32,000 nucleotides of DNA from Candidatus Methanophagaceae archaeon (GCA_003194425.1 PQXB01000001.1:790444-822443), one strand, 5' to 3'. Counted from the first letter of the stretch, positions 6,763 to 32,000 are shown. The notes: a model not told the origin generated them from the sequence alone. Translations and numbers: made by a program.

Positions 6763-9700
6763 TCAACGCTCCAACCGAGAAGCAACCGCTACCGTCAAAT
6801 CCTCAACTTCAAAATCCCCTCCCTCCCCTCCTCTTTCTTTAGTAAAGCTTTCTTTTTTTAAGTCCCCCCTTTCTTTAGTAAAGCTTTCTTTTTTTAAGAA
6901 AGGTTTAAAGAAAGGTTTTAAAAAAACTTTTGCACAGTCAAGGTGAATCCAGCACTTTGGGCAGGACACAACCAGCTTGGACGCACCCGTCTCTTCAGCC
7001 TCCGCCAGCCGTTCGATTTGCGTCGCCTTTGCCACCGGGCCACAAGTTAGCATCGCACTTACGCCGCAGCACTCCGCTCGCTCCCGGTTGTGTGCCATTT
7101 CCTGTAATTTTACACCCGGAATTCTGCTCAAGACCTCTCTCGGTGCCTCGTACACGCCGAGGTGCCGTAACCTGCAGGGGTCGTGGTAAGTAACAACCTC
7201 CTCTTTCCCTCCGCTTTCAACGAACCTCAACTCCTTGTCCCTCAAAAATTCGGAGAGGTGTAAAACCTGAAACCCCAATTCTGAGCTCTCTAAAAATCGC
7301 CGGTAGTCCTTCTCAAAAGTCCTGAGGCACTCTGCACAGGTAAAAACCACCGTCTTCGCCCCGCTCCTTCTTACCACTTCTACATTCGCCTTCACCAACG
7401 CCTTAAAACTCTTCTCGTCCCCTGCCCAAAGCAAGTCGTGGCCACAGCACTTCTCTGTACCGCTCACCGCAGGAACGACGCCGACTGAGTTGAGCAGCCG
7501 TACCGCACTCCTCGCAATTTCAAGCAGCCTCAAATTCTTACGGTCGCTGTACACTCGGTCGAGGTAAGAGAGGCAGCCCGAGAAGTAGTAGACCTCGCCC
7601 TTCTCCGAAACTTTCAGTCCCTCCTCCTCGCTACCCTCCTCTCCCTCCACCTCAAGCCACCTCAGCCTGCTCTCCTCCCTGCCCGCTCCCTTCTCTACAC
7701 TCACTACTTCAGCAGCCGAGCCAAAGAAGTGTGGCACGCTGCCCCTACTCAACGCCAAGCTTCTCGCACCCTGAACAAAACGCAAAAAATCTACCTCGTA
7801 AGGGCAAACCGCGTCGCAGACGCCACAGGTCGTGCACTTCCAAATTTCCTCACTCAACACCAGTTTCTCCGCGTCCTCAGACAACGCCAAACCCGAAAGC
7901 AGTCTTGGTGAGAAGCCGGGCTCCTTCGCGGTTACAGGACACAACGCCGTGCAAACCCCACACTCCACACATTTATTCACACCCGTAGCGTAAGCCAACG
8001 CGTCTACAAACTCCCCTGCGTCTCCCTCTCCCTTACCCTCTCCCTCTACCCTTCCCTCTACCCCTCTCTCCTGCCTCGGAAAGCTTAAAAGACAGCTCCT
8101 ACAGTTGAAACACCGTTCAGCCTCCTCAACCGCGTCGTCCTCTGAAAGCCCGACCTCAACCTCCTCAAAACTCGTTCTCCTCTCCTCCGCTCCAATTCTC
8201 CTCCCTACCGCCTCCTTTCTCCTTCTCCTCCTTACTAACCCTCTCTTTGCCTCGTCCTCCAACTCTTCTCTCACGCACACCTCCTCTTCGGGCAACTCCT
8301 CTGAAACTTTTACCGACGCTCTACCCTTTTTTAAATCCTCGCCCCTCAAACTCAAACCCCTCAAGAACCTGTCAATTGTCTCGGCAGCCTCGTTACCGTC
8401 TGCAACAGCCTCAACTGCGAACGCCGCACCACGAACGCAGTCGCCACCCGCGAACACTCCCTCCGCCGCACTAACACAAAACTCGTCTGCCACAACTCTC
8501 CCTTCTCTCCCTCCTCCTTTCCCCCCGCTCCCGACTGTTTCGACCCCGCTACCCTCAAGAAACCTCAAGTCCGACGCCTGCCCTACCGCGGGAATTACCG
8601 TGTCCACCGCCACCAAGAACTCCGAGCCACGAACGGGAACTGGACGCCTCCTTCCCGACTCGTCCTGCGGACCCAACCTCATCTTTACAAGCTCTAATTT
8701 TTCTACCCTCTCCTCCCCTCCTCCCCCTTCTCCCCCTCCTGCTCCGGCTCCTCCTACCTTTGCAGCACTCCCTAAAATCCTCGTTGGGCTCGCCAAGAAC
8801 ATAAATTTCACGCCCTCCTCCTCCGCTTCCCGCACCTCTACCTCACTCGCCGGCATCTCCTCTCGCGACCTCCTGTAAACGACGGTCACCTCCGAGCAGC
8901 CCAACCGCAACGCCGACCTCGCTGCGTCTACCGCTACATTTCCGCCACCCACCACTGCAACCCTCTTCCCTGCTACTCTTTCAAGACCTTTCCCAAGATT
9001 AAAATCACGCAGGAAATCAAGACTCGAAACAACTCCCTCCAAATCCTCGCCCTCGACTTCAAGCCTTCTGCTCACATCCGCGCCAACAGCGACAAAAACC
9101 GCGTCGTACTCGCCACGAATCCGCTCGAACTCCTCTCTACCAATCTCAACCCCTGTCTCAACCTCTATTTTTTCCCCCCTTCCCTCTCCTGCAACAGAAA
9201 AAACAACCGCCTCAATCTCCTTTTTCAGAACTTCTTTTGGCAGCCTGTACGGCGGAATACCAGCGAAGAGCATTCCCCCCGCCACAGGCAACTTCTCAAA
9301 GACCTTTACCCTGTACCCCTTCCCCGCCAACCGCCACGCCGCAGTCAGCCCCGCAGGACCCGCACCAACAACCGCTACTCTTTTACCTCTTTCGTTTTCC
9401 CCCTTGCTTTTCCCCTCTCTTTTCTCCTCTCTTTTCTCCTTCTTTTTCCCTTCACCCCCTCCCTTCTCTCCCTCCTCCTTTCCCCCCGCCTTCTCCAAGA
9501 CCGTGTCGCCAACGAACCGTTTTAAAGCGGCGACAGCAAGAGGGTCGTCAAAAAAACCTCGCTTGCAGTTCGCCTCGCAGGGGTGGTTGCAAATCCGCCC
9601 GAGAGTAGCAGGAAAAGGAATCGTCTCCCGAATTAGCGAGTACGCCTCCTCGTACCTGCCCTCCGAAATTAGTTTGATGTAACCTTGAGCGTCACAGCCT

Positions 9701-9807
9701 GCGGGGCAGGTAGAGACGCACCTCGGCACCTCTCTGTCTATTCCAAAATCCTCTTCATCGGAATGCAAAAAGCTCTTGTAGCGAGCACAAAGTTCTTTAG
9801 ACAGCAT
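6763..9807 (-). CDS. Multidomain oxidoreductase: GltD-like NAD(P)H/FAD module + 2x[4Fe-4S] ferredoxin + two CCG domains (HdrD/GlpC-like)
   Basis: 1014 aa. N-terminus has the GltD-type Fe-S region (ICNHPCEANCKRG) and a dinucleotide fold (VAVVGAGPAGLTAAWRLAGKGYRVKVFEKLPVAGGML, VAVVGGGNVAVDAA). Ferredoxin motifs are CVECGVCTALCP and CTTCGVCDAVCP. CCG domains are GCLSY...KCCGHD...FTCAEC and HDPC...ECCGVS...SCPKC. At least five G/E/K low-complexity inserts are present. Confidence 0.8.
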   Translation of the reverse strand: MLSKELCARYKSFLHSDEEDFGIDREVPRCVSTCPAGCDAQGYIKLISEGRYEEAYSLIRETIPFPATLGRICNHPCEANCKRGFFDDPLAVAALKRFVGDTVLEKAGGKEEGEKGGGEGKKKEKREEKREGKSKGENERGKRVAVVGAGPAGLTAAWRLAGKGYRVKVFEKLPVAGGMLFAGIPPYRLPKEVLKKEIEAVVFSVAGEGRGEKIEVETGVEIGREEFERIRGEYDAVFVAVGADVSRRLEVEGEDLEGVVSSLDFLRDFNLGKGLERVAGKRVAVVGGGNVAVDAARSALRLGCSEVTVVYRRSREEMPASEVEVREAEEEGVKFMFLASPTRILGSAAKVGGAGAGGGEGGGGEERVEKLELVKMRLGPQDESGRRRPVPVRGSEFLVAVDTVIPAVGQASDLRFLEGSGVETVGSGGKGGGREGRVVADEFCVSAAEGVFAGGDCVRGAAFAVEAVADGNEAAETIDRFLRGLSLRGEDLKKGRASVKVSEELPEEEVCVREELEDEAKRGLVRRRRRKEAVGRRIGAEERRTSFEEVEVGLSEDDAVEEAERCFNCRSCLLSFPRQERGVEGRVEGEGKGEGDAGEFVDALAYATGVNKCVECGVCTALCPVTAKEPGFSPRLLSGLALSEDAEKLVLSEEIWKCTTCGVCDAVCPYEVDFLRFVQGARSLALSRGSVPHFFGSAAEVVSVEKGAGREESRLRWLEVEGEEGSEEEGLKVSEKGEVYYFSGCLSYLDRVYSDRKNLRLLEIARSAVRLLNSVGVVPAVSGTEKCCGHDLLWAGDEKSFKALVKANVEVVRRSGAKTVVFTCAECLRTFEKDYRRFLESSELGFQVLHLSEFLRDKELRFVESGGKEEVVTYHDPCRLRHLGVYEAPREVLSRIPGVKLQEMAHNRERAECCGVSAMLTCGPVAKATQIERLAEAEETGASKLVVSCPKCWIHLDCAKVFLKPFFKPFLKKESFTKERGDLKKESFTKERGGEGGDFEVEDLTVAVASRLER
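6833..6898. repeat. 30-bp unit repeated with 36-bp period (in frame) in the 3' end of CDS 6763..9807
   Basis: ctttctttagtaaagctttctttttttaag occurs at 6833-6862 and 6869-6898. It encodes the KKESFTKERG(D/G) duplication. An adjacent aagaaaggttt x2 encodes FKPFFKPF. Confidence 0.9.
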
Positions 9808-13444: not shown

Positions 13445-14629
13445 TTAGGTAAGTAAAATCTTCATCGTCTCCTCCGCGGGCAGTTCGTTCTCCTTGCAGA
13501 CCGCGATGGTGCAGAGATTCCTCACCTCTGCTTCTTTGAGGTAAAGAAAGCCAATTGCCGTTCCGATGTTAATTGGGTAGCCCCGCAGAGTGTTTTTTAC
13601 CGTTGCGAAAAAATGCTTCCAAAGCGCGTTCTCGAAAGGAAAAAGCGTCTTCTCGGCTTCGTAGGCAGCCAACGCCCCGCTCAAAACCTCCTTGTAAGCC
13701 GAACCTGCCGAACCCGCCGGCATCGCTTGGACACTCGCACTCACACTCTCCGCCGAAACCGAGTCCTGCATCGCGTCGGCGCCAAAATCAAACGCGTACC
13801 AGTAGGGCAGAAAATACCGCCTCATTTCCCGCTCCTCCACTCCCTCGGATTTGCAGCGCAGCAAAATCATAAGATTCACAATGTCAAACTCGGTCCCAAC
13901 AATCCGCCTCACAATTCCCTTCTCCTTCGCGTTCAGTCGCCCCGTCTTCTCCCAGACCGAACCCGAAATCTCGGCGTCAAGCGCGTTCTCAAGAGCCAAC
14001 ACCCTCCTGCCGCTGCCTTCTCCCTTTGCCTTCCCCTGCAGCACCGCAGCTGGTAACGCCGCTTCCAAAACTCGCCTGTACGGCTCTTCTAACTCTTTTA
14101 CCACGCTCTCCACCGAGTCCGCCTCAAAGAGTCGGCTTATTCTACGCCCAAAGAAATCTTCAACCGGGAAAAACATCGCTCCTTCCACTCCCTCTTCTGC
14201 TCCTGTCCCAGTTCCTGTCCCTTCTCCTGTCCCAGTTCCTGTCTCTTCTCCTGTCCCCGTTCCCACGACCTCTGCAGCGGCTTTAGCCCGCAGAACCGCC
14301 TTCAGATTCTTCACCTCCAGCCGCCTGAGAAGTTCCTCAAAAACAGCCCTCGCCGCTCTTGCACCCTCGATCGATTTTATCACCATCAAATACTGCCCCA
14401 CCAGTTCTTCTTTCAACGCTCTCTCTATTCTCCTCGCGTCTACACCGCCACTTACCCCCGCTGCCACGCCTGCATTTGTTAGTTTCTCTTTGTAAGTGGT
14501 GTTCATCAGCAAAGCCAGAAAATCTTCCCCGCGAGCGTCTACAAGCTCTCTTAATCTCCGCTCGTCCAGAAGCCCGCTCATCCTCGCCCTCACCCTCGCA
14601 TACGAATACGCATATTTCGACACGCTCAT
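13445..14629 (-). CDS. atpC: A/V-type ATP synthase subunit C (eukaryotic subunit d homologue)
   Basis: 394 aa. N-terminal KYAYSYARVRARMSGLLDERRL is the hallmark start of archaeal AtpC. The protein is helical throughout. A G/T/E insert (GTGTGEETGTGTGEGTGTGTGAEEG) is present. Confidence 0.75.
   Translation of the reverse strand: MSVSKYAYSYARVRARMSGLLDERRLRELVDARGEDFLALLMNTTYKEKLTNAGVAAGVSGGVDARRIERALKEELVGQYLMVIKSIEGARAARAVFEELLRRLEVKNLKAVLRAKAAAEVVGTGTGEETGTGTGEGTGTGTGAEEGVEGAMFFPVEDFFGRRISRLFEADSVESVVKELEEPYRRVLEAALPAAVLQGKAKGEGSGRRVLALENALDAEISGSVWEKTGRLNAKEKGIVRRIVGTEFDIVNLMILLRCKSEGVEEREMRRYFLPYWYAFDFGADAMQDSVSAESVSASVQAMPAGSAGSAYKEVLSGALAAYEAEKTLFPFENALWKHFFATVKNTLRGYPINIGTAIGFLYLKEAEVRNLCTIAVCKENELPAEETMKILLT
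14201..14264. repeat. 24-bp in-frame tandem repeat, about 2.7 copies
   Basis: tcctgtcccagttcctgtc[c/t]cttc occurs at 14201-14224 and 14225-14248, with a partial copy to 14264. It encodes the GT-rich insert of atpC. Confidence 0.9.
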
Positions 14630-14646: not shown

Positions 14647-14678
14647 TCTATTTATTAGTTCCGAGCAACTTATAAATC
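14647..14678. promoter_or_regulatory. Candidate divergent promoter region with two TATA-like boxes
   Basis: ctatttatta (14648-14657) lies about 20-28 nt from the atpC ATG on the minus strand, which suggests a leaderless transcript. ttataaat (14670-14677) lies about 48 nt upstream of the ATG at 14725. Confidence 0.3.
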
Positions 14679-14724: not shown

Positions 14725-15876
14725 ATGCCTGATAAATTCAACGAGCGGGCGAACGCATTAGCCGCGGAATATTGGCGATTAAAAGGCGTAGGCAGCACCG
14801 TTGCCGGCACTGCCGACGGCACCGGCACTGCCGCCGAGAAAAACGCAGAAAATAAGTTAGCGGATTTGGAGGAGATTGAAAAATTATTGGAGCAGGGGGT
14901 GGGGGGGAAGTTAAGGGCGAAGTTGGACGCGGAGGCGAGGCGGCTGCGAAGGGAGAAGGAAGAGCGGAGCAGTGCGTCGCAGGGGTTGGTGGAGGTCAGG
15001 AAGGAGCTGTTGGAGCTGACTGCGGAGTTCGCCCCGAACCTCGACCTCTTTGACGGGCGTTCCTTTCCGTACGACAGCGAGCACGAGCCGATTTCTGAAG
15101 ATTATTTCTCCGCGATTACCGACCTCTTTCTCGGTAAGCCACAGCCAAGCGTCCAATTGAAGAACGCGGTCTTCTCTAAAGACGGCGTTGAAATTTGGTC
15201 CGAGACAGCGGGGGCAGGAGCGAGTTCGTCCTCGTCTTCGGCTTTAAAAGTTTTGGGTGACCTAATAATGTTAATGCAGGAGACCGCGAAGAAGTTGCTC
15301 GGCACGGAGAACAGCATTGACAGGGCTTGTAAAATGCTCAGGCAGAACGAGTACGCTTTTATCGTGTTAAGGACGCTGGTTAGAGACGGAAAAGGAAACG
15401 GAGCAGGAAGGCGACTTCGGATGCGGCAGATAAAAGAAATCTCCTACAACGAGGACAAGGAGTACAAAGAGCTGGTGAGGAATATTTACGACAAAGAGCT
15501 CGTTAAGGGCGTTGAATATTTGCTCAGCGGCAAGTGGGAACACGAGTTGGTCAGGGCGCACGACGGCGAGTACGACGACCGAGAGTACGAACCGACGGAC
15601 TTTGGCGTGTGGGTGTGGCGGATTTGCAACGCCGAGTTCGAGAGCGGAGGTGCAAGGGTGGGAAAGCGGAGAGTGTGGGGAGAAAGGCGAGAAAAGGGGG
15701 AGAGGAAAGAAAAGGGTGGGAGGAGAGAGAAGAAAGAAAAGGGTGAGAGGGGGGACAGAGGAGAGAGGGGGAACAAAGGAGAGAGGGGGAACAAAGGGGA
15801 GAGAGAGGAGAAAGGAGAGAGGAAAAGCATTTCAATGAAAATAGTAAAGTTTTTAAAGAAAGAGAAGATAAAGTAG
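14725..15876 (+). CDS. Hypothetical protein (383 aa): N-terminal coiled-coil, possible winged-helix-like region, C-terminal G/E/R/K repeat tail. First gene of the CetZ cassette.
   Basis: Long ORF with a purine-rich leader (aaggagagagggagaagggagggagaagga) directly before the ATG. No family recognised. Confidence 0.6.
   Translation: MPDKFNERANALAAEYWRLKGVGSTVAGTADGTGTAAEKNAENKLADLEEIEKLLEQGVGGKLRAKLDAEARRLRREKEERSSASQGLVEVRKELLELTAEFAPNLDLFDGRSFPYDSEHEPISEDYFSAITDLFLGKPQPSVQLKNAVFSKDGVEIWSETAGAGASSSSSSALKVLGDLIMLMQETAKKLLGTENSIDRACKMLRQNEYAFIVLRTLVRDGKGNGAGRRLRMRQIKEISYNEDKEYKELVRNIYDKELVKGVEYLLSGKWEHELVRAHDGEYDDREYEPTDFGVWVWRICNAEFESGGARVGKRRVWGERREKGERKEKGGRREKKEKGERGDRGERGNKGERGNKGEREEKGERKSISMKIVKFLKKEKIK
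15760..15795. repeat. 18-bp in-frame tandem duplication (ggagagagggggaacaaa x2)
   Basis: Copies at 15760-15777 and 15778-15795. They encode GERGNKGERGNK. Confidence 0.95.
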
Positions 15877-15901
15877 AAGGAAAGCGGATAAAAAAGAGTA
15901 A

Positions 15902-16654
15902 ATGAGAGAAGGGAAAGGAAGCGGGAAAGAGGAGAGGGCGGAGAGGGAGAAAGCCGTTGCCTACTTAAGATCACGAATATTTCCGTGGAATTTCATCTTT
16001 GAGCAGACAGAGGAGGACGCGATAAAACATTTCGTTGGCTACGCAATTCAGGTCTGCGAGGGCAAGGGAATTGAGAAGGGACGGGTAAGCGACGGCGTGA
16101 ACGAGGTAAAAGCGTTGCTTACAACGGAAGTGCGAGAGGCGGTGAACGACTACCTGCTTGAAGCAGACGACCCGGAAATGAGGAAAATGCACGGTGAATT
16201 CGCTGCAGCCTACCCCTTCGCGTTCAGTCAGTGCCTGGTGCACACGATTTTGTGCAGGCTCGGGCTTGAGTTGGCGGATTTGGTAGATTTAAGAGCGGTT
16301 AGCGAGTTGTTGGGGCGGAGTGTAAAAGAGATGAGAAAGAATGAACTTTTCGTTAGAGACCAAATCTCAAAGAACGAGCGAAAAGCGATGCAGATTTTTG
16401 CTAATTTTATTCTGAACCGGCAGGTTCTAACCGCGGACGGTGAGTGCGTTGGGCGTGTTAGCGACATTATTTTTGAGGCGGAGACCGGAGATGTGGGGGG
16501 GCTGATTGTAAATCATCAGAAGCAAAAGGGAAGAGGAGCGAGAGGAGCGAGAGGAGCGGGCTTGAAGGTGAAGAAGACCAAGATTTCTATGCACGATGTG
16601 AGATTGAATAAATATAGCAAGAACATTGTTTTAAATTATACAAGTTACAAATAA
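15902..16654 (+). CDS. PRC-barrel domain protein with an unknown ~170-aa N-terminal domain
   Basis: 250 aa. C-terminal LNRQVLTADGECVGRVSDIIFEAETGDVGGLIVNH...ISMHDVRLNKYSKNIVLNY fits the PRC-barrel pattern (G..V....G..lG.v.dv.id..tg.v..lvv). Confidence 0.6.
   Translation: MREGKGSGKEERAEREKAVAYLRSRIFPWNFIFEQTEEDAIKHFVGYAIQVCEGKGIEKGRVSDGVNEVKALLTTEVREAVNDYLLEADDPEMRKMHGEFAAAYPFAFSQCLVHTILCRLGLELADLVDLRAVSELLGRSVKEMRKNELFVRDQISKNERKAMQIFANFILNRQVLTADGECVGRVSDIIFEAETGDVGGLIVNHQKQKGRGARGARGAGLKVKKTKISMHDVRLNKYSKNIVLNYTSYK
16532..16558. repeat. 9-bp in-frame tandem repeat x3 (agaggagcg)
   Basis: Units at 16532-16540, 16541-16549 and 16550-16558. They encode GARGARGAG inside the PRC-barrel domain loop. 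Confidence 0.95.
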
Positions 16655-16729
16655 AGGCAAGGCGAGGCGAAGAGAAAGGAGAGAGGAGAAAGAGGCGAAG
16701 GACGAAGAAGGAGAAAGGGAAGAGAAGAA

Positions 16730-17947
16730 ATGAGGGTATTTGTGATTGGCTACGGGCAGGCGGGCGGAAGAGTGGCGGACGCTTTTTACGAGTACGCCAA
16801 GCGGACGGGTCAGAATTTCATCGTTCGCGCGTTAGCAATTAACACCGCGAGGTCAGACCTGCTCGGAATAAAAAGCATTCCGATGAGGGACAGGCTACTC
16901 GTAGGGGACGCGATGACAAAGGGGCACGGAATCGGGGCGGACAACGAAATGGGGGCGAAGGTCGCGACCGACGAACTTTACACGATTCAGACCGCGATCG
17001 ACAAACGCGGGACGCACGAGGTTGACGCATTTCTGATAATTGCCAGCTTGGGCGGCGGGACAGGCTCGGGTGGTGCTCCAGTCTTGGCACGGCGGCTGCG
17101 GAGTTTGTACGACGAGCCTGTTTACGGGCTTGGAATTCTGCCTGCAAAGGAGGAGGGCAGTCTGTACTCGCTGAACGCTGCACGGAGTCTGATGACTTTC
17201 GTGAACGAGGTAGACAACCTTTTCCTCTTCGACAACGACGCGTGGAAGACGAGCGGGGAGACGCTAAAAGAAGCGTTCCAGGGCATAAACGAGGAGATTG
17301 TGCGGCGATTCGGAATTCTCTTCGGTGCTGGCGAGGCGAACGAAGTAGGGCAAATGGTCGTCGACGCCGCAGAGGTGATGAACACGCTCAGGGGCGGCGG
17401 AATCTCGACGATCGGCTACGCTGCGGAGGAGATAAAAGGGAGGGGAAAAGGAGGCGGAAATGGTGGCGGAAGTGGAAGCGGCGGTGGTGGGGGAAGGGGG
17501 CTGTTAAAGAGGCTCTTTGGCAGAGGCAAGAGTGACGAGTCGATGGAGAAGATGGACGCAACCACGAGGATTACTTCTCTCACCAGGCGAGCGGCAGCGG
17601 GCAGACTCACGATTCCGTGCGATGTTACAACCGCGGAGAGGGCGTTGGTAATCGCTGCGGGTCCGCCTGGGGAGTTGAACAGGAAGGGAGTAGAGAAGTC
17701 GAAGGAGCGGGTAGAGGATTTGATACGAGGGACTGAGGTGCGGGGCGGGGATTTCCCGCTCGTAAAGAGCCGCTACGTCTCGACAGTCGTTCTCTTTTCC
17801 GGCGTCTCAAATATTCCACGAGTAAAAGAGATTCAAGAACTCGGTGCAGGTGCGTTAGAGAAGATTGAGGAGATTTCAAGCGAGAAGGAGAAGGACTACG
17901 AGGAGCTGCTGGACACGAAAGGGACGATAAAACCGCTGTTTAAGTGA
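16730..17947 (+). CDS. cetZ: CetZ-type tubulin/FtsZ-superfamily GTPase
   Basis: 405 aa. MRVFVIGYGQAGGRVADAF, INTARSDL, KGHGIGADNEMGA, tubulin signature SLGGGTGSGGAPVLA, EPVYGLGILP, LNAARS and FDNDAW are near-collinear with haloarchaeal CetZ1 as I remember it. A glycine-rich insert (GRGKGGGNGGGSGSGGGGGRG) precedes the C-terminal region. Confidence 0.85.
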   Translation: MRVFVIGYGQAGGRVADAFYEYAKRTGQNFIVRALAINTARSDLLGIKSIPMRDRLLVGDAMTKGHGIGADNEMGAKVATDELYTIQTAIDKRGTHEVDAFLIIASLGGGTGSGGAPVLARRLRSLYDEPVYGLGILPAKEEGSLYSLNAARSLMTFVNEVDNLFLFDNDAWKTSGETLKEAFQGINEEIVRRFGILFGAGEANEVGQMVVDAAEVMNTLRGGGISTIGYAAEEIKGRGKGGGNGGGSGSGGGGGRGLLKRLFGRGKSDESMEKMDATTRITSLTRRAAAGRLTIPCDVTTAERALVIAAGPPGELNRKGVEKSKERVEDLIRGTEVRGGDFPLVKSRYVSTVVLFSGVSNIPRVKEIQELGAGALEKIEEISSEKEKDYEELLDTKGTIKPLFK

Positions 17948-17965
17948 GATGCGAGGAGAAGAGAG

Positions 17966-18820
17966 ATGGGGATAAAATTGAAGGGACTGGTTGCAATCGT
18001 GGTGGTGTCGCTTTTCTTGACGCCGTTTTGCGTCGGAGTCGGTGGCGTCGGAGTCGGTGGGGTGGATTTAGAGAAGTCCAAGTTCGTGGAGGTCAAAGGG
18101 TCGCCCTCTGTGCAGTGTGAGGAAATAGCGGGGAAGATAAAAGCAGGGAGCGAAGTTTCGGTAACCGTCGTCCTAACGAACTTCAGTCAGGAAATAGAGG
18201 AATCTACGCTAGTCTTTTACTCGGACTTGGAGGACGCGGGAGGGCATGTCGGCGACGGCTCGCGTGTAATCAAAGACCGTGGCTCTTTTACGGTGAGACA
18301 CCGAGAGTTCAAAGACAAAGACAAAGAGCTGCGAATTGTCTGGTCGGGAAAGGCGCCGGAGTTGAAGACACAGCAGAACACGACTTTGCTGAGCATAACG
18401 CAGGAAATAACAGGGGAATATTTGGTAGTCAGTGTAAGGCGGGAGGTGTCTTCGGAGGAAATTGAGGAGGCGCTAAATGCCTTGAGCGAGGCGAGGGCGG
18501 AAATAGAAAATGCAAATTCCGCGATCTCTAACGCCACAAAGCACGGTGTCGAGGTCTCTGAAGCGGAGACGAATTTGGAAAATGCCAATTTCCATTTTAG
18601 AGACGCTAACAACTCCTACTGGCAAGGCAGAGCAGGAGAGTCGGTAACAGCGGCGAGAGAGGCTGCTCATTTTGCAAGGCTTGCCAAAGAGCGAGCAGAA
18701 TCGGGAAGTGCGTCGGTGAAGTGCAGGAATTACGGCGTTCTGGTGGGTGTGGTGGTTCTTGCGGTTGCGGTGCTCGTGTTTTTGATTATAAAACGGGGCA
18801 GGAAGCGGGGGATTTATTAA
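17966..18820 (+). CDS. Predicted surface-exposed single-pass membrane protein: N-terminal signal/anchor, beta-rich domain, helical domain, C-terminal TM plus basic tail
   Basis: 284 aa. N-terminal hydrophobic LVAIVVVSLFLTPFCVGVGG. C-terminal YGVLVGVVVLAVAVLVFLII followed by KRGRKRGIY. Starts 18 nt after the cetZ stop. Confidence 0.6.
   Translation: MGIKLKGLVAIVVVSLFLTPFCVGVGGVGVGGVDLEKSKFVEVKGSPSVQCEEIAGKIKAGSEVSVTVVLTNFSQEIEESTLVFYSDLEDAGGHVGDGSRVIKDRGSFTVRHREFKDKDKELRIVWSGKAPELKTQQNTTLLSITQEITGEYLVVSVRREVSSEEIEEALNALSEARAEIENANSAISNATKHGVEVSEAETNLENANFHFRDANNSYWQGRAGESVTAAREAAHFARLAKERAESGSASVKCRNYGVLVGVVVLAVAVLVFLIIKRGRKRGIY
18031..18060. repeat. 15-bp in-frame tandem duplication (cgtcggagtcggtgg x2)
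   Basis: Copies at 18031-18045 and 18046-18060. They encode VGVGGVGVGG. Confidence 0.95.
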
Positions 18821-18823
18821 TTT

Positions 18824-19861
18824 TCAGTCTCTGCTTTTTGTTTTTTTGTCTTGTTTTTTTCGCTCTTTTTTTATTTTTTTCCGCTCTTTCTTCTCCTCCT
18901 TCCGCTCCTCGTACCACCGCAGCACCCCCGCGTTCAGAAGCCAAGTGTTCCCCAAATCCGTCACGAGCCCGAAGAGAAGGACAGCTGAAATGTCCCACAG
19001 GATTGAAATTGAGACGAAATAAGAGACGATGAACATTGCGAAGACCGCGGAGAGCGTCGTGAAAGACATCGTTATGCCGGTTGTCATTGTGTTTCTTATC
19101 TTCTCTTTTAGGTCGCCCTTTTTACGAAGTACATTCGTCGTCAGCAGAATATCGGAGTCCACAGAGTAGCCGATGAGCATAAGCAACGCCGCTACCGTGC
19201 CGAGCGAGAGTTCCATCCCGACCACATTCATACAGGCGAGTGCGATGAGGATGTTAGAGAACGCCGCGAAGACCACTATTAACGGCGGCACGAAAGTTCG
19301 GAAGACCACGAAGACCACGACCGCCATCAAGAAGAACGCGATTAGCACTGCACGGACCGCTTGGGCTTGGTACTGCCTGCCGAAGAGCGGGCTAATGCTC
19401 TGCATTTCGTAAGTTCCCACTCCGTACTCCTCGTTAAGCAGATTTATCAGTTCGTCCTTCTCCGTCCCACTCATTGGACCGAACTCAATCCGTTTCTCGT
19501 TGCCTACGCCCGTACTGCCCACGAGGACGACAGGAAACGGCGAAGGTAACGTCGAGTCCGAGAACTTCGCAGTCAGTTCCTCGCCTGTCTCGTCGGTCCC
19601 GATTTTTACCCAAGTCCCGCCTTTGAAATCCATTCCCAACTGGACGGGCGAGCCGACGCTCAGTTGCGTGTAAGCGAGCACCGCCAAAGCGACGAGCAGA
19701 ATAATTAGCGGCACCGCAACCAGCCTCTTCACCGAATATTTCGTTACATCCAGCCGTTCAAAGAGACCGCTCCCTTCCTGCTCTCTCTCTCTTACTTCTC
19801 CTTTCCTTCGCCCGCCACCTCGCCCGCTCCTACTCCTGCTGCCTCTCTCCCTCTCCTTCAT
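18824..19861 (-). CDS. secF: Protein-export membrane protein SecF
   Basis: 345 aa. Matches include LGMDFKGGT, the GYSVDSDILLT motif, and six TM spans in the SecF arrangement. Charged low-complexity extensions occur at both termini. Confidence 0.8.
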   Translation of the reverse strand: MKERERGSRSRSGRGGGRRKGEVREREQEGSGLFERLDVTKYSVKRLVAVPLIILLVALAVLAYTQLSVGSPVQLGMDFKGGTWVKIGTDETGEELTAKFSDSTLPSPFPVVLVGSTGVGNEKRIEFGPMSGTEKDELINLLNEEYGVGTYEMQSISPLFGRQYQAQAVRAVLIAFFLMAVVVFVVFRTFVPPLIVVFAAFSNILIALACMNVVGMELSLGTVAALLMLIGYSVDSDILLTTNVLRKKGDLKEKIRNTMTTGITMSFTTLSAVFAMFIVSYFVSISILWDISAVLLFGLVTDLGNTWLLNAGVLRWYEERKEEKKERKKIKKERKKQDKKTKSRD

Positions 19862-19989: not shown

Positions 19990-21039
19990 ATGGTAGCCTT
20001 TAAGGAGGATAAAGAGGAGTGTGGGAGTAAGAAAAAGAGGGGGGAGGGAAGGAGGGAGGGAAGGAAGGAGGGAGGGAAGGAAGGAGGGAAGGAGGGAAGG
20101 AAGGAGGGAGGGAAGGAGGCGGGGGGAAATGTTAGCGAGGCGGGAGGTAGAGTAGAGTTAGAGACACGAGAATGCCCTGACTGTGGCTCTAAAAATTTAA
20201 TAAGCGATTACTGCAGGGCTGAGATTTTTTGTGCGGAGTGCGGGCTAATAATCGCGGATAATATTGTTGACCTCGGTCCTGAGTGGCGTGCCTACGACGC
20301 TGAGCAGGTGGCGAAAAAGGTGCGGGTCGGAGCGCCGATGACTTACCGAATGCACGACAAAGGGCTGAGCACGGTCGTCAGCCGTGGCGGTTCACAGGGT
20401 CAAGAGCAACACAAAATAAAAACATTGCAACAGCGGCGACACACTACCACGAATACGAATGAAAGGAGTTTTATCTTCGCGCTCTCCGAGATAGACCGGA
20501 TGGCGTGCGCGCTTAAACTGCCCGTAAATATAAGGGAAGCGGCGTCAATGTTGTACCGCCAAGCGATGAAGAAACACTTGATTCGTGGGCGGAGCATTGA
20601 AGGAATAACCTCTGCTATTTTATACATTTCCTGCCGACAGTGCGGCGTGCCAAGAACACTTGAAGAAATGGAGGACATCTCACGAGTTGAGCAGAAGGAA
20701 ATATCCCGTTCTTACAGGTTTCTTTTACGTGAATTAGGCGTGAAACTCTCGCCTGCTTCGCCTGTTGATTTTGTGCCTCGTTTCTGTTCGTTGCTCGAGT
20801 TAGGTAGCGAGACAAGGATAAGAGCAATCGAGATAATAAAAAAAGCGACCGAGGCGGAACTGACAAACGGACGAGGACCAATCGGGATTGCAGCAGCGGC
20901 TATTTACATCGCTGCGATTTTGAGTGGTCAGCACCGCACGCAGAAGGATGTCTCTGTTGTTACCGGCGTTACCGAAGTCACAATTCGGAACAGGTACAAA
21001 GAATTGTCGCAGCAGTTAAATATTGATATTCTTTTGTAA
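19990..21039 (+). CDS. tfb: Transcription initiation factor IIB (TFB)
   Basis: 349 aa. Zn-ribbon CPDCGSKNLISDYCRAEIFCAECGLII, then GPEWRAY, then two cyclin-fold repeats (NIREAASMLYRQA..., IRAIEIIKKA...GRGPIGIAAAAIYIA). About 50 aa of N-terminal (KEGG)n-type extension with no alternative in-frame start seen. Confidence 0.9.
   Translation: MVAFKEDKEECGSKKKRGEGRREGRKEGGKEGGKEGRKEGGKEAGGNVSEAGGRVELETRECPDCGSKNLISDYCRAEIFCAECGLIIADNIVDLGPEWRAYDAEQVAKKVRVGAPMTYRMHDKGLSTVVSRGGSQGQEQHKIKTLQQRRHTTTNTNERSFIFALSEIDRMACALKLPVNIREAASMLYRQAMKKHLIRGRSIEGITSAILYISCRQCGVPRTLEEMEDISRVEQKEISRSYRFLLRELGVKLSPASPVDFVPRFCSLLELGSETRIRAIEIIKKATEAELTNGRGPIGIAAAAIYIAAILSGQHRTQKDVSVVTGVTEVTIRNRYKELSQQLNIDILL
20038..20125 (+). 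repeat. GGA/GGG-rich low-complexity tract (ggaagg/agggag units) in the 5' coding end of tfb
   Basis: ggggggagggaaggagggagggaaggaaggagggagggaagg... was read directly. It holds many GGG runs separated by 1-9 nt on the sense strand. Confidence 0.9.
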
Positions 21040-27270: not shown

Positions 27271-28029
27271 ATGAAAAAAAACAACTTTTTCCAAGCAGCG
27301 TTCAGGATCGCGGAGAAGGACTTGCGGACCGAATTCCGGCGGTCTTACGAAGTCCTCTCAATCCTCTCCTTCTCGGTCGGCTCAATTCTGATCTGCAGTT
27401 TCGCGTGGAGTGGCGGTTCTGCCACTTCAGGACCAGAAGAGGCAGCCGCAGCGCTCTGGGTTATTCTCTTCTTCACGAGCATTCTCGTGTTTACAACCTC
27501 TTTTACACGCGAAGCCGACCGCGGAACGCTCGGCGGTCTAAAGACGCTGCCCTGCTCGCCGCTCGCAATTCTCTTCGGTAAAATTATTTACGGAACCGCA
27601 CTGCTTGTTCTCGTGGAGTGCGTGCTAATTCCTTCTTCGGTCGTTTTCTTAAACCTCGATTTTTTGGGTAGGGGATTTCCCGCACTCTTGCTCGTCTGCC
27701 TCTTGGGTGCGGTCGGGCTCTCGTTCGCAGGCTCGTTCGTCTCGGGGCTCGTGATGTTTTCAGAAAGCAAAACCCTGCTTCTCTCTTTTCTGCTCATTCC
27801 AGTTTCTATGCCGGTGCTAATTCCGTCGGTCGTGGCGACGCGAAAAATCGTCAGTGCTTCGGTAGCAGGCGTAGGTGTAGGAGGCGTGGGTGTAGGAGGC
27901 GTGGGCGTAGGAGGTGTGAGAGGTGTAGGGCTAACAGAAGTGCTGCCGGAGTTACGGCTGCTAACCGCTTTTCTTCTCCTGATAACCGCGATAATGGTCC
28001 TCACATTCGAGTTCGTGCTTGAAGATTAA
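27271..28029 (+). CDS. ccmB: CcmB-like ABC exporter permease (heme exporter protein B family)
   Basis: 252 aa with six hydrophobic spans. IAEKDLRTEFRR and FTREADRGTLGGLKTLPCSPLAILFGK match CcmB motifs (rDlrl..R ; f..E.e.GTle.l...P......l.gK). A (GVGVG)n insert lies near the C-terminus. Confidence 0.6.
   Translation: MKKNNFFQAAFRIAEKDLRTEFRRSYEVLSILSFSVGSILICSFAWSGGSATSGPEEAAAALWVILFFTSILVFTTSFTREADRGTLGGLKTLPCSPLAILFGKIIYGTALLVLVECVLIPSSVVFLNLDFLGRGFPALLLVCLLGAVGLSFAGSFVSGLVMFSESKTLLLSFLLIPVSMPVLIPSVVATRKIVSASVAGVGVGGVGVGGVGVGGVRGVGLTEVLPELRLLTAFLLLITAIMVLTFEFVLED
27868..27930. repeat. 15-bp in-frame tandem repeat, about 3-4 copies (ggcgt[a/g]gg[t/c]gtagga)
   Basis: Units at 27868-27882, 27883-27897 and 27898-27912, with a degenerate continuation to about 27930. 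Confidence 0.9.
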
Positions 28030-28196
28030 TTTGAATAAAGATAAAAAGAAGAATAAATTGGCGAAGAAGTAACGAAGTAACCTAAAGTGGTCTTAAGGGG
28101 TTTGGGGTCGTAGATCCCTGAGACAGGGTGCGACCTGAATAAACAGGTCATAAAGGAGGGAATAGCAGCTAAAAAATGCTGATATTGAGATAACAA

Positions 28197-29153
28197 ATGA
28201 ATATATGCATGGTATTGGGGAGTTTTTTTCCACCTGACATTCGTGTTGAGAAGGAAGCCAGAGCTTTAATCAGTGCAGGACACAGAATATTTCTTCTTTC
28301 ATTGGGGAAAAAAAGTATGCCAGCAGTAGAAGACATTAAAGGTATAAATGTTATTCGTGTTTTCCCTGCTGAGAGCTTTCTAAACAGAATGCGGAGATTT
28401 CTTTGGTTTAACATATTTTTTGACGACTCTTTCTGGAAAAGAAGTTTGGAGGGGGTTATTAAACAATATAAAATCGAGATTGTCCACGTTCATGATTTGC
28501 CGATGGTGAAAACCGCAACAACTGTTGCCAAAAAGTTCGATATTCCTATAATTGCTGATTTACATGAAAATTACCCAGAGGGAATGAGGGCTTGGAGAAA
28601 GGTAAAGATGAGTTGGAAGAGTAAAATCTTTAATCTGATTTCGCCTGTGTGGAGGTGGAAGCGATTAGAGCGGTCGGTGCTCCAGCACGTGGATAGAATA
28701 ATTGCCGTGGTTGAGGAGTCAAAGGAGCATTACATTAATGATTGTGGAGTGCCCCCTGAAAAGATAACTGTGGTGATGAATGCTGAAGACTTGGAAGATT
28801 TTGGCAATTTAGAAATAGATGAATCTTTAGTTAGAAAATATAAAAATAACTTCGTCATTTCCTACATTGGCGGTTTTGGACCTCACAGGGGAATGGACAC
28901 CGCGATTAAAGCAATGCCTGATGTTGTAGAAGAAATACCAGATGCAAGGTTGCTTCTGGTCGGTGGAAAGGGCTCGGAAGAATATGAAGAAGAGTTGAAG
29001 AAATTGTGCAAAGAGTTGAAAGTCGAAAACAATGTTGAATTTACTGGCTGGGTTGATTTTCGTCTGGTTCCTTCTTTTACCGCTTTGAGTGATGTTTGCC
29101 TTGTGCCGCATCATGCAAGTGGGCACACGAATACAACCATTCCTCACAAACTA
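28197..29153 (+). pseudogene. GT4-family glycosyltransferase, 3'-truncated (loses homology right after ...TTIPHKL)
   Basis: N-terminal FFPPDIRVEKEARALISAGHRIFLL and C-domain FVISYIGGFGPHRGMD...LLLVGGKG...VEFTGWV...ALSDVCLVPH are GT4-like. The expected continuation (P.KllEYma.G.PVi) is missing and the track ORF tail (LSLCNISYDQ...) looks like nonsense. The region is A/T-rich. Confidence 0.6.
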
Positions 29154-29533
29154 TTATCCCTCTGCAATATTTCTTATGACCAACTATTTCAAGTCGAGAG
29201 ATTTGAATCCGCCAAAAGTAACTTCTATTATAACTTCATCCGAAACTTTACTGCCAGAACATAGAACAGAGATAGAAAATTTCTGGGGTTGCAAAGTATA
29301 TGATTGGTATGGCTTAGGCGAAAGAGTCGCAGCCATAGGCGAATGTGAAGACGGCGGATTTCATATAAACCTTGAATATGGCATTGTTGAGTTTAAAGAT
29401 GTTAGTGGAAGCAACCAAAAAGAGATAATCGCGACCAGTTTTTGGAATTTTGCTATGCCTCTTATCAGATACTCTACCAGAGACCTTATAACTCCTTCAA
29501 CCAACAGCAAGTGTTCCTGCGGTAGAAGTTTAC
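29143..29533 (+). pseudogene. Internal/C-terminal fragment of a CapK / F390-synthetase-like (PaaK-type adenylate-forming) enzyme
   Basis: A different frame from the GT reads LTNYYPSAIFLMTNYF...VTSIITSSETLLPEHRTEIENFWGCKVYDWYGLGERVAAIGECEDGGFHINLEYGIVEF...IRYSTRDL...CSCGRS. This matches the middle-to-late part of CapK/PaaK-like proteins. There is no N-terminal half and no proper C-terminus. Confidence 0.55.
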
Positions 29534-29828
29534 TCACCGATCGCCTAACGCACACCCAACATCCAAAATCTTTATCTTCTTTTTCGTCGGCAGTATTGTC
29601 TTCAATATTTTGATGTAGCGGTCGTATCTGAATTTCTGTGAGCCACGCCAGTGGTGTCCCCAGCGGTCACCTTCTTCTCCAATATTCTTAAACATAGATT
29701 CAGCCACGCCAGTGGTGTCCCCAGCGGTCACCTTCTTCTCCAATATTCTTAAACATAGATTCAAACCATTCTTTAGTGCCCCCTTTCTCTCCCAAATCTT
29801 TGATATTAGATCTCTGATGTTTAGACAT
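29534..29828 (-). pseudogene. N-terminal fragment of a class I SAM-dependent methyltransferase, disrupted by a 61-bp tandem duplication and truncated after motif I
   Basis: From ATG 29828 the frame reads MSKHQRSNIKDLGEKGGTKEWFESMFKNIGEEGDRWGHHWRG and then hits TGA created by the duplication. Collapsing the duplication restores ...GSQKFRYDRYIKILKTILPTKKKIKILDVGCALGDR (motif I), which stops at the junction with the CapK fragment. Confidence 0.6.
29641..29762. repeat. Perfect 61-bp tandem duplication
   Basis: agccacgccagtggtgtccccagcggtcaccttcttctccaatattcttaaacatagattc occurs at 29641-29701 and 29702-29762. Confidence 0.95.
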
Positions 29829-29863
29829 TTTTTTGACCCAATTTTCATGCTAACAGCTTGAAA

Positions 29864-31689
29864 CTAACAACCATTGTATAAATTATAGTACTCCTCCATC
29901 TTTTTCTCGAACAATAACACATAATAAATCTCCAAAGTCTTGTCTTTAAATATAGATTCAGTAATTAGATATTCCCAATCACAATTGGATAATAATTCCT
30001 TGATATAATCTTCGTCTCGTGAATCAATTTTAGATTCTGATTTTGTTTTTTGGTTTGGAGAAATATGTCTAACTATAGATTCAAATAAGGATCCAAATGG
30101 ATGCTTTCTATCTACTCTATATTTATAAAAAAATTTTTCTATTGTTTTACCTGTATTTTCTATTGGAACTTTACGGAAGTAACTATCTTTCTTGTTCAGA
30201 TCGTAATTGAGTTTGGCGTTGAATTTCGTTGAATAGTCTATTGAAAGAGCATAATTAAAAAAATCATTTTCATAAAAAGGAGATAAGAAATATTCATTAT
30301 AATTCCTACCAACATAGCAATGATCATTCATATAACCATATATTCGATTTTCTATGACATAACGCTCAAATTGTTTTATATTATCTGTTGAATCATATTT
30401 TCCTTTAATTGTTTCATAATTATACTCAATTTCCCTCTTGATGTTGTTTACTATATTTAAAGGCCAATTAAGGCGATTTATCTTTGAGATGTAATAGTCG
30501 CTTGGCTTAACCATAGATGAAAACGTTCTCAAAAGGAATAATGTAATTTCATTAGGTAGAAAGTTAGAACTAATTAGCTCCATCTTCCTAAAAATATTTT
30601 TAGAGCCACCAATTAAAAAATCAAGTTTTGTAGCTGCCATAATTGTATCACCAACTGTACCTTCTGTGAAGATACTGGAGGGATCAAAAGATTTATGAAA
30701 ATCAACTAAATGAAGGTCTCCTTGTAATCTTTTTGTTTCTTGTATATCTATAAGTTGCTCATATTTCTCGGTCAGTTTTTTGAAATTTTTCTCCTTTTGT
30801 TTTTCTCGCCCTATGAGTTTTATTTCTACATTTGGATAATTTTTTTTGAGAGCATTGATTAGATGCCCCGCATGATCCTCAGTCGTGTGTGTATAAGTAG
30901 TAACTTTTAAGCTTTTTCTTAATAAATGAGCTAATAAATAGCTTGAATCCGTTCCTCCAGAGAAGCATAGAGATATTTTATATCTTTTATTTACTGGATT
31001 AAGCACTTTATCAATTGCATTTAGAAATAAATCCTCAATGTCTTCAAGATACGTTTTGTAATCCACGATTTTATTATCGATGTGGGGTTTATAAAATTTG
31101 TGAGTAAGTTTGTTGTTTTTTGGATTAAATGTATATATTGATAAATTATCTAATTATAGATCGTTTTCCTATTAAGAGTATGTTCAAGACTTAATAATTC
31201 TGCAATTGCCTCTTTACTGAGACTTATATGATTTTCCTTGGCTACTGGGAAAATAAATTTTATGGCTGGTGCCACACAAAAAATATTTCTGGATCTGTGG
31301 TAGTAAAGATCAAAGAGCGTATGGTAAGGTGTTATTATCTGCACAAGTTTCGGAGTTTTAATTACAATATTACCAAAGAAAGGTATTGTCTCAACGAAAT
31401 TTATTCCGTATTTATTATATAATTTTCCTATAAATTTTGCGCCATCATTAATCTCTTTGTCTTTACCTAAAATATAATCATCAAAAAAGATATGTGTGTT
31501 TTCTATTTTTGCATATGGAGTTGGATAAACACCCCAATTGATTAAACCACATAATTCTTTTTTAGAATATTGTTCAAAAATTTGACATTTTGGTTTCCTT
31601 TTTAATACATCTTTTAGAACTTTTTTGATGTATGTTTCTATTTCTTCCGCGTTTACATTGTTATAATAAAAAAGGCCTATATTGCTCAT
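29864..31689 (-). pseudogene. Asparagine-synthase-like (AsnB family) gene split by a 1-nt frame change. The N-terminal amidotransferase-like domain lacks the catalytic Cys.
   Basis: ORF 31150..31689 starts at ATG 31689 with GAGGTGA upstream and begins MSNIGLF, not MCG. It ends ...LNRKTIYN-TAG. The -1 frame is open from 31153 (LDNLSIYTFNPKNNKLTHKFYKPHIDNKIVDYKTY...) and runs into ORF 29864..31066, which carries the PP-loop SLCFSGGTDSS. Together these reproduce the AsnB interdomain region. Confidence 0.5.
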
Positions 31690-32000
31690 TCTTTCACCTC
31701 TCTCTGTTGAATATACCACCTATAATAACTCCATCGAGTAATGGAACAAACTGCGCAGCTTATAAAACTTACCCACGCAGCACCCATTGCTCCATATGCC
31801 GGTACTAAAAGAATATTCCCCATCAGATTTGATATACCCATAATAAAACTTGTATTTCGTAACTCAGTGCCCCGGGTGTGGGCGCTTAAAAAATTATTAT
31901 GTGGTAAAGTCAACCCAGAAACTAACCCAGCCAATGCAAGAGGCAATATCAAAGGAACAGTCGGCAAAAAGTTTTCGGTAAATAGCAAAACCACGATAAA
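31686..32000 (-). CDS. Wzx-like polysaccharide/oligosaccharide flippase, C-terminal part (5' end outside the window)
   Basis: Hydrophobic C-terminus ...NLMGNILLVPAYGAMGAAWVSFISCAVCSI... is typical of flippase C-terminal domains. Its TGA stop overlaps the ATG of the AsnB-like gene (ATGA overlap at 31686-31689). Confidence 0.55.
   Translation of the reverse strand, partial: FIVVLLFTENFLPTVPLILPLALAGLVSGLTLPHNNFLSAHTRGTELRNTSFIMGISNLMGNILLVPAYGAMGAAWVSFISCAVCSITRWSYYRWYIQQREVKE

Follow-up and report, generated by a model that had tools for sequence, protein, structure and literature searches.

A conserved four-gene cassette in ANME-1 archaea joins a CetZ1-like tubulin to three candidate partner proteins

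A cassette of four genes that includes cetZ, which encodes a tubulin-superfamily GTPase, lies within a 32,000-nucleotide (nt) stretch of DNA, here called the window, from a Candidatus Methanophagaceae archaeon (GCA_003194425.1 PQXB01000001.1:790444-822443). The four open reading frames are all on the plus strand and are referred to here as g1 (14725-15876, 383 residues), g2 (15902-16654, 250 residues), cetZ (16730-17947, 405 residues) and g4 (17966-18820, 284 residues), with spacers of 25, 75 and 18 nt. Genes of the minus strand flank the group on both sides, with subunit C of the A/V-type ATPase upstream (13445-14629; PF01992, TIGR02923 AhaC) and SecF downstream (18824-19861). This layout reproduces that of an initial annotation made from sequence alone, which proposed that the four genes form a self-contained module of tubulin filament, adaptor and envelope anchor. 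Homologues of g1, g2 and g4 carry Methanophagales or ANME-1 (anaerobic methanotrophic archaea, group 1) names, two contigs from the Joint Genome Institute (JGI) are 98 to 99% identical to g2 of the window, and sequence matches thus place the cassette on an ANME-1 (Methanophagales) chromosome. The remaining window is ordinary chromosomal housekeeping, with genes for an M42 peptidase, TFB, endonuclease dU, HMG-CoA reductase and tRNA-Ser. Housekeeping flanks and an unremarkable base composition led us to reject a mobile or laterally acquired island, and Rfam and tRNA scans found no RNA gene inside or adjoining the cassette.

The third gene encodes a CetZ-type member of the tubulin/FtsZ superfamily, as initially annotated. 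The protein matches Tubulin (PF00091, 114 bits, residues 3-173, the GTPase domain) and CetZ_C (PF21011, 215 bits, residues 176-371), and it contains the motifs GGGTGSG (residues 108-114) and FDNDAWK (residues 167-173). In comparisons with PDB entries, its full-length match to Haloferax volcanii CetZ1 (4b46) reaches 438 bits, against 273 bits for CetZ2 (4b45) and 79 bits for a Methanosaeta CetZ (3zid). By these scores the protein is CetZ1-like and much nearer to Haloferax CetZ1 than to CetZ2, and we write CetZ1-like instead of CetZ1 because the label rests on pairwise scores and the organism lies outside Halobacteria. Its probable place is in the "Halobacteria-like" clade of Brown and Duggin. 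The catalytic E218 of H. volcanii CetZ1 has its aligned counterpart in E215, and polymerization with GTP is predicted from this residue conservation. A long M-loop (residues 237-269, 17438-17536) includes an organism-specific poly-Gly insert and an amphipathic tip, GLLKRLFG (17498-17521), which aligns with GLLSRL of CetZ1, and the C-terminal tail IKPLF(K) (17927-17944) is the counterpart of LESLF. In H. volcanii, the M-loop tip (LLSRL) and the C-terminal tail (LESLF) are both essential for rod formation, and the tail is a presumed protein-interaction site, the partner of which is not known (bioRxiv 10.1101/2024.04.08.588506). Thus, full-length homology, both domains, the GGGTGSG motif, the aligned catalytic Glu, a long M-loop and a hydrophobic tail are common to the two proteins, whereas the host here is ANME-1 and not a haloarchaeon and the tail reads KPLF instead of ESLF. 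Moreover, the gene neighborhoods differ wholly, as haloarchaeal cetZ1 adjoins nolA plus cofactor and purine genes (Brown and Duggin).

The association of the four genes is conserved. A CetZ alignment was used to search a single genome from each GTDB species, which yielded 68 loci, and each locus was scored with hidden Markov models built for g1, g2, CetZ and g4 (individual loci and contigs are cited below by L numbers). The CetZ paralogue linked to the cassette is marked by the C-terminal ending ...[KQR]PLF, and in these species-representative genomes, counting only loci with sufficient flanking sequence, g1 and g2 were found upstream of such a CetZ at 49 of 52 loci and g4 downstream at 52 of 54. 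In an independent scan that used the g2 motif FPWNF to pick out metagenome contigs, g1 was present in 34/36 cases, CetZ in 26/31 and g4 in 17/17. Contigs that carry divergent homologues of g1 and g2 likewise had all four genes, in unchanged order and on one strand, amid unrelated flanks, and this arrangement recurred in dozens of independent contigs. Many ANME-1 genomes, Methanospirareceae and Methanoxibalbensis among them, have the full cassette, as do four Methanocellales genomes in which CetZ is 57% identical (L065, L066, L074 and L075) and further lineages (L061, L063 and L064, all three Halobacteriota, as well as L079 and L119). Additional contigs of the g1 clusters add a Mnemosynella-like lineage (L078; class Archaeoglobi at NCBI) and an 80-kb JGI contig. 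Co-occurrence of the neighbors with CetZ homologues, which the initial annotation had offered as a check on its proposal, was strongly positive across several orders and was confined to one CetZ paralogue.

Other CetZ proteins of the same organisms do not share the neighborhood. ANME-1 genomes encode up to three CetZ paralogues. The paralogue with an ...APLF tail had cassette neighbors at 0 of 4 loci upstream and 0 of 7 downstream, and the tail-less ANME-1 CetZ (357 to 359 residues) never has them. The ...APLF type (L015, L020, L021, L030:6995-8146, L037, L038, L046:6879-8030 and L048) is typically preceded by a small winged helix-turn-helix gene and an undecaprenyl pyrophosphate synthase gene (PF01255), with the cassette only about 2.3 kb upstream of it in L030 and L046. 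The tail-less type was found at L052 to L055 and at L071.

The cassette consists of two tightly coupled but separable pairs, g1-g2 and cetZ-g4. Across loci, the median gap is 19 nt between g1 and g2, which sometimes overlap, 13 nt between cetZ and g4, and 86 nt between g2 and cetZ, and within the tight pairs stop and start codons overlap at some loci. The cetZ-g4 pair stands without g1-g2 in Alkanophaga and at L058 and L069, and g1-g2 stands without cetZ-g4 at L080, L108 and L118. At L105, only g2 is left, with an orthologous ftsZ (74% identity) on one side and, on the other, the MutS-like gene that succeeds g4 in L004. We conclude that the self-contained module first proposed holds in that its order is conserved across orders and does not hold as a single unit, since it divides into pairs.

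The product of g2 (15902-16654) has two domains, an N-terminal helical domain (residues 8-170) and a C-terminal PRC barrel. The barrel (residues 174-244, 16421-16633) matches PF05239 with 33 bits against a cut-off of 21.2, and Methanocellales orthologues score 31.8 to 37.5 bits; the copy in the window carries an organism-specific Gly/Arg loop insert at residues 209-220. In an AlphaFold model with a predicted local distance difference test score (pLDDT) of 78.5, the barrel gave Foldseek matches to 3htr, 8onw and 8qzo at a probability of 1.0, which include the Archaeoglobus fulgidus CdpB1/CdpB2 structures, and the g2 profile matches A. fulgidus CdpB (8qzo_A) with an E value of 3.8e-8. Thus, the PRC barrel that had been recognized from sequence alone survives both a profile search and a fold check, and by sequence profile and modeled fold it is most closely related to the archaeal CdpB proteins. 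The N-terminal helical domain, of about 165 residues, had no structural match in a Foldseek search of the PDB. It includes the motif YLRSRIFPWNF (15962-15994), the family form of which, YLRSRLFPWNF, is near-invariant across orders in a cross-order alignment, with FPWN invariant. Because the motif is near-invariant and yet falls within a low-confidence segment of the model, a pattern typical of short interaction motifs, we consider it a candidate interaction motif. By itself, the motif was sufficient to retrieve the family from metagenomes.

How far g2 resembles CdpB bears on whether the cassette acts in division. Archaeal CdpB proteins organize the FtsZ/SepF ring, and the FtsZ-SepF-CdpB1/CdpB2 module (8ONW, 8QZO) combines a tubulin-superfamily filament, a PRC-barrel protein and a membrane-binding adaptor, as we propose for the cassette, with the barrel of g2 nearest to CdpB by fold and by profile. 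Perhaps, then, CetZ, g1 and g2 act with FtsZ at the division ring by means of a CdpB1/CdpB2-like barrel, and not in cell shape. Indeed, about half of the ANME-1 loci have ftsZ in divergent orientation directly upstream of g1 (29 FtsZ matches, e.g., L001:5779-6918), at L004 (3744-6885) the ftsZ side also contains a CdpA_N/DUF7139 gene and a volactin-type actin gene (PF25216) in a small cluster of cytoskeleton genes, and at L105 it is g2 alone that stays beside ftsZ when g1, cetZ and g4 are gone. The adjacency to ftsZ is found only in ANME-1, however, and is absent from the window, from Methanocellales, from the Mnemosynella-like lineage and from the other lineages that bear the cassette, such that linkage to CetZ is far more consistent than linkage to FtsZ. 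Moreover, CdpB proteins are small and essentially barrel only, whereas g2 adds the helical domain, which is not found in CdpB proteins, and the invariant FPWNF; the filament protein is CetZ and not FtsZ; and the cassette lacks a sepF gene. Haloferax CetZ1, furthermore, is reportedly not needed for division. In a further difference from the division module, g2 is tightly linked to cetZ, whereas a CdpB gene does not, as a rule, neighbor ftsZ or sepF (Zhao, Makarova and co-workers). On balance, we regard a division-site role, the main alternative reading, as unlikely.

We note that lone g2-type proteins, with FPWNF and a PRC barrel and 44 to 51% identity to cassette g2, are encoded beside ftsZ at three loci (L105:4845-5645, L102:411-1190 and L103:35-814). 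The surroundings of L105 match the L004 neighborhood, so g1, cetZ and g4 appear to have been lost or moved there. The Cdv/ESCRT system offers a second point of comparison, as CdvA is a PRC-barrel protein with a helical region paired with a winged-helix partner, CdvB. CdvB carries a winged helix, and so, by prediction, does g1. The likeness is limited, however, as in g2 the helical domain precedes the PRC barrel, the reverse of the CdvA order, genes for ESCRT-III and Vps4 are lacking here, and a Foldseek search with g1 gave no ESCRT-III structural match.

The product of g1 belongs to no recognizable family, as was initially suspected, since sequence searches of Pfam, NCBIfam and the PDB returned none. 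Collagen and adhesin matches were discarded as products of its Gly/Glu/Arg/Lys (GERK) repeat tail, and HVO_A0261_N was rejected at 14 to 17 bits against a cut-off of 35. An exhaustive profile search of 1.84 billion representative proteins found a small family of 21 clusters, typically of about 298 residues and limited to ANME-1, Methanocellales, Mnemosynellales and a few further lineages. An AlphaFold2 model (pLDDT 80.7, predicted template modeling score 0.73) begins with three long helices, continues with a small beta unit and finishes with a helical and winged-helix C-terminal region. The N-terminal helices (residues 2-24, 36-56 and 62-100; region 14728-15024) are accompanied by an organism-specific Gly/Thr/Ala insert at residues 21-44. 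The helical and winged-helix region (residues 197-308, 15313-15648) is followed by a Gly/Glu/Arg/Lys repeat linker (residues 313-367, 15661-15825) that is encoded by in-frame, organism-specific tandem DNA repeats; elsewhere the linker is variable and acidic, and the organism of the window has enlarged it to a 55-residue GERK repeat. Thus, the "coiled-coil protein" of the initial annotation is apt for the long helices and incomplete for the rest, as the protein also has an acidic winged helix and a basic amphipathic tail.

That tail, SISMKIVKFLKKEKIK (15826-15873), was recognized in a cross-order alignment. Every g1 orthologue ends in a basic amphipathic segment, such as IHKILKFLKR, ISKLYQMLRRK or SRFRLFGRR, with a net charge of +2 to +5. 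The hydrophobic moment of the tail ranks in the top 1 to 4% of 11-mers in ANME-1 orthologues, with the window copy at the 96th percentile, and is lower outside ANME-1, at the 80th to 98th percentile in Methanocellales and the further lineages. We consider the tail a candidate membrane-targeting or partner-binding helix. A terminal basic amphipathic helix behind a flexible linker is the arrangement of anchors of the FtsA, MinD, SepF and TubY type, and by this likeness g1 is predicted to bind lipid and filament. TubY, an accessory protein of the tubulin-like TubZ, binds membranes by means of such a basic amphipathic tail (PMC7762940).

The winged helix of g1 might instead suggest a regulator. 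Foldseek returned only generic matches to it (PadR, MukE, TubR and Cdt1-C; best E value, 0.26) and found no SepF or other cytoskeletal adaptor fold. The nearest structural matches are regulators of the PadR/MarR type, and perhaps g1 regulates cetZ while g2 and g4 work independently, for example as a PRC housekeeping protein and an unrelated surface glycoprotein, such that the cassette would reflect co-regulation without a physical machine. Consistent with such an arrangement, the cassette is divisible into pairs, and PRC-barrel genes often lie in neighborhoods unconnected with division (Zhao et al.). Almost all orthologues, however, have an acidic winged-helix region, with a net charge of -5 to -13 and a pI of 4.4 to 5.5 in most of them (-2 and pI 5.8 in the window copy), and protein binding is therefore likelier than DNA binding. 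Moreover, a protein of about 300 residues with long helices and a conserved amphipathic tail is atypical of a simple repressor, and co-regulation does not readily account for an order and a tight spacing kept across orders for one CetZ paralogue only, or for terminal motifs that are kept in all four proteins where the remaining sequence diverges. We find co-regulation alone improbable, somewhat more so than a role in division.

The same winged helix also recalls type III plasmid partition, and g1 might link DNA to the CetZ tail in a DNA-positioning system akin to TubZ-TubR-TubY. TubR is among the structural matches (6aht_B, TMt 0.65), TubY is much like g1 in having a helix-turn-helix, a coiled coil and a basic amphipathic tail (PMC7762940), and the C-terminal tail of TubZ is described as binding an adaptor (PMC5322520). 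Thus, g1 combines elements comparable to a winged-helix adaptor recruited by the TubZ tail and to TubY. The TubR match is one of many generic winged-helix matches, however, with Foldseek E values of 0.26 or worse, and TubR has a basic, DNA-binding winged helix whereas that of g1 is acidic. Moreover, there is no sequence homology to the plasmid system, no centromere-like repeats were noticed beside the cassette, where the tandem repeats found are in-frame and coding, and the tubulin is CetZ1-like, chromosomal, in a housekeeping context and paired with a surface protein. The likeness appears to be an architectural analogy, and DNA positioning is a very remote prospect. Because of the acidic winged helix and the overall architecture, both the regulator and the DNA-positioning readings seem less likely than a division-site role.

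Distant relatives of g1 (E values of 1e-14 to 1e-26) are encoded at L076:6138-7855 and L077:3922-6035, which are about 41% GC. They are tandem look-alike pairs, with a coiled coil and a winged-helix-like end, and no CetZ or PRC gene is nearby; at L077, a beta-flower (PF21784) gene succeeds the pair. These relatives were set aside as uninformative for CetZ, as their contexts are unrelated and each has a tandem paralogue.

The fourth gene encodes the single-pass surface protein initially described. Its sequence (gene 17966-18820) comprises a hydrophobic signal or anchor segment (residues 8-25), a beta-rich domain of about 130 residues, an Ala-rich helical region of about 100 residues, one C-terminal transmembrane helix (residues 256-275, 18731-18790) and a basic cytoplasmic tail, KRGRKRGIY (18791-18817). 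The protein is the fastest-evolving member of the cassette, and its orthologues all keep the N-terminal hydrophobic segment, the beta-rich domain, the Ala-rich helical region, the one transmembrane helix and the basic tail. Tails are 7 to 12 residues long with lineage-conserved endings (...KRGIY or ...WDRLG) despite the fast evolution of the ectodomain, and N-x-S/T sequons are conserved. Family searches gave only sub-threshold matches. DUF4398 was rejected as sub-threshold and limited to 6 of 21 members, RIFIN/Stevor matches reflect the transmembrane helix and basic tail, and a PGF-CTERM/archaeosortase signal was dismissed because no PGF motif precedes the transmembrane helix.

How the cassette is transcribed may be read in part from its spacers. 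A TATA-like element, CTTATAAATC (14669-14678, plus strand), lies 47 to 56 nt 5' of the g1 start, in a 95-nt divergent intergenic region common to g1 and the ATPase subunit C gene. It is a weak candidate for the cassette promoter, and a cross-locus scan for AT-rich or TATA-like boxes was clouded by AT-rich codons in the conserved ends of the genes. In archaea, oligo-T tracts are known to signal termination. Five runs of T5 to T7 (18835-18880, plus strand), which begin 15 nt past the g4 stop codon, form a candidate terminator, and no T-run of at least 5 occurs in the three internal spacers of the window cassette, which are 88 to 93% purine. The lack of internal T-runs together with the cluster past g4 suggests a single transcript that ends after g4, and the cassette is probably an operon. 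We note that g4 and secF converge, with stop codons 3 nt apart, and that the opposite strand of the oligo-T cluster is coding sequence for the Lys-rich C terminus of SecF.

Taken together, we propose that the cassette is a CetZ1-type cytoskeletal filament module with three dedicated membrane or envelope accessory proteins, probably expressed as an operon, and we give this reading a probability of about one half. CetZ would polymerize with GTP under the membrane, as Haloferax CetZ1 does. The products of g1 and g2, made as a stoichiometric pair, would form a peripheral membrane adaptor, to which g1 would contribute a basic amphipathic C-terminal helix for attachment to the membrane and, for binding proteins, its long helices and its acidic winged helix, and to which g2 would add a CdpB-like PRC barrel and the invariant FPWNF motif. 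The adaptor would capture CetZ, most likely by its ...KPLF tail or its M-loop. The g4 product, translated together with CetZ, would be a glycosylated, single-pass surface protein, the basic tail of which would give the cytoplasmic assembly a handle on the envelope. ANME-1 and Methanocella cells are rod-shaped. Given that shape and the function of CetZ1 in Haloferax, the output of the module may be control of rod shape or of envelope organization.

Several observations weigh against the filament module as proposed. First, the pairs stand apart in some lineages, so a complex of all four proteins need not be obligate. Second, the initial annotation assigned the membrane tether to g4, the topology of which indeed holds, but a cytoplasmic tail of 7 to 12 residues is a small handle, and the conserved basic amphipathic C-terminal tail makes g1 at least as good a candidate. 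Third, a tether may be unnecessary, as H. volcanii CetZ1 alone binds liposomes in vitro (bioRxiv 10.1101/2024.04.08.588506). Fourth, no g1 relatives were detected in Halobacteria, where the function of CetZ1 was defined, and a role in cell shape thus transfers by CetZ homology only. Finally, the g2-cetZ spacer, with its median of 86 nt, leaves room for an internal promoter, and cetZ may have its own; the single transcription unit initially suggested is therefore favored by the pattern of T-runs and qualified by the size of that spacer.

The filament module might also be old. We speculate, tentatively and with less confidence than in the module itself, that g1, g2 and g4 are receptors of CetZ1-type filaments and that the cassette is an ancestral four-component machine coupling the cytoskeleton to the membrane, by way of the g1 tail and the g1/g2 pair, and to the surface, by way of g4. 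Such a machine would predate the divergence of Methanocellales, ANME-1 and the Archaeoglobi-related lineage and would later have been lost or replaced in haloarchaea. Were this so, the g2 family would be a general adaptor for filaments of the tubulin superfamily, serving CetZ within the cassette and possibly FtsZ at loci such as L105, where g2 is the lone member beside ftsZ.

Some observations concern the organism and its relatives more than the cassette. In-frame short tandem DNA repeats have given rise to Gly/Glu/Lys/Arg-rich low-complexity inserts in many proteins of the window organism, at 14200-14263, 15690-15827, 16532-16558, 17435-17496, 18030-18060 and 20037-20119. Those affected include the ATPase subunit C, the g1 linker, the g2 barrel loop, the CetZ M-loop, the g4 signal region and the N terminus of TFB, and orthologues from other ANME-1 genomes are without these repeat inserts. 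From 28000 to 32000 in the window, GC content falls from about 52% to 29 to 39%, and the region, which encodes a GT4-family glycosyltransferase (28197-29264) and open reading frames matching no family, may be a surface-glycan gene island. On the minus strand (6763-9807), a 1,014-residue fusion joins a GltD/HdrA-like flavoprotein part (Fer4_20, Pyr_redox_2) to a 4Fe-4S dicluster domain and two CCG (HdrB-like) domains. Finally, in a Methanoxibalbensis-like genome (L007:13129-16032), catalytic subunit A of the A-type ATPase is split by an intein with a LAGLIDADG endonuclease (PF14890, PF14528).

Tubulin-superfamily filaments with accessory proteins are known as a kind of system, and what is new here is the cassette and two previously undescribed protein families. 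Among the papers searched, no publication ties CetZ to a PRC-barrel protein or describes the cassette, in keeping with the initial annotation, which knew of no PRC-barrel partner for CetZ. Full-text searches on CetZ in ANME-1 or Methanocella, and on ANME-1 FtsZ and cell shape, returned nothing relevant. In their survey of archaeal PRC-barrel neighborhoods, Zhao, Makarova and co-workers report translation, Cdc48, EngB and Cdv contexts and a single SepF/FtsZ case, with no link to CetZ, and the lineages that bear the cassette lie outside its coverage. Published surveys of CetZ synteny had tied the gene only loosely to others, of metabolic, pilus or sugar function. The study of Brown and Duggin does not include ANME-1 or Methanocellales and does not mention PRC barrels, and among non-haloarchaea it analyzed only CetZs outside the Halobacteria branch, which is why the CetZ1-like clade was missed.

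CetZ is an archaea-specific branch of the tubulin superfamily, and CetZ1 is required for rod formation and motility in Haloferax. To our knowledge, nothing is known of the molecular basis of ANME-1 cell construction. The cassette is a tight, paralogue-specific association conserved across orders, and it names three families as candidate CetZ partners, the first concrete candidates for linking CetZ filaments to the membrane and cell envelope. One of them bears a PRC barrel, a fold recently shown to organize the archaeal FtsZ ring. How CetZ is attached thereby becomes a defined set of binding and localization tests, for which cultured Methanocella species are a possible source of protein; the host organisms are hard to handle. 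Ultimately, the cassette bears on how the rod-shaped, sheathed cells of ANME-1 are built.

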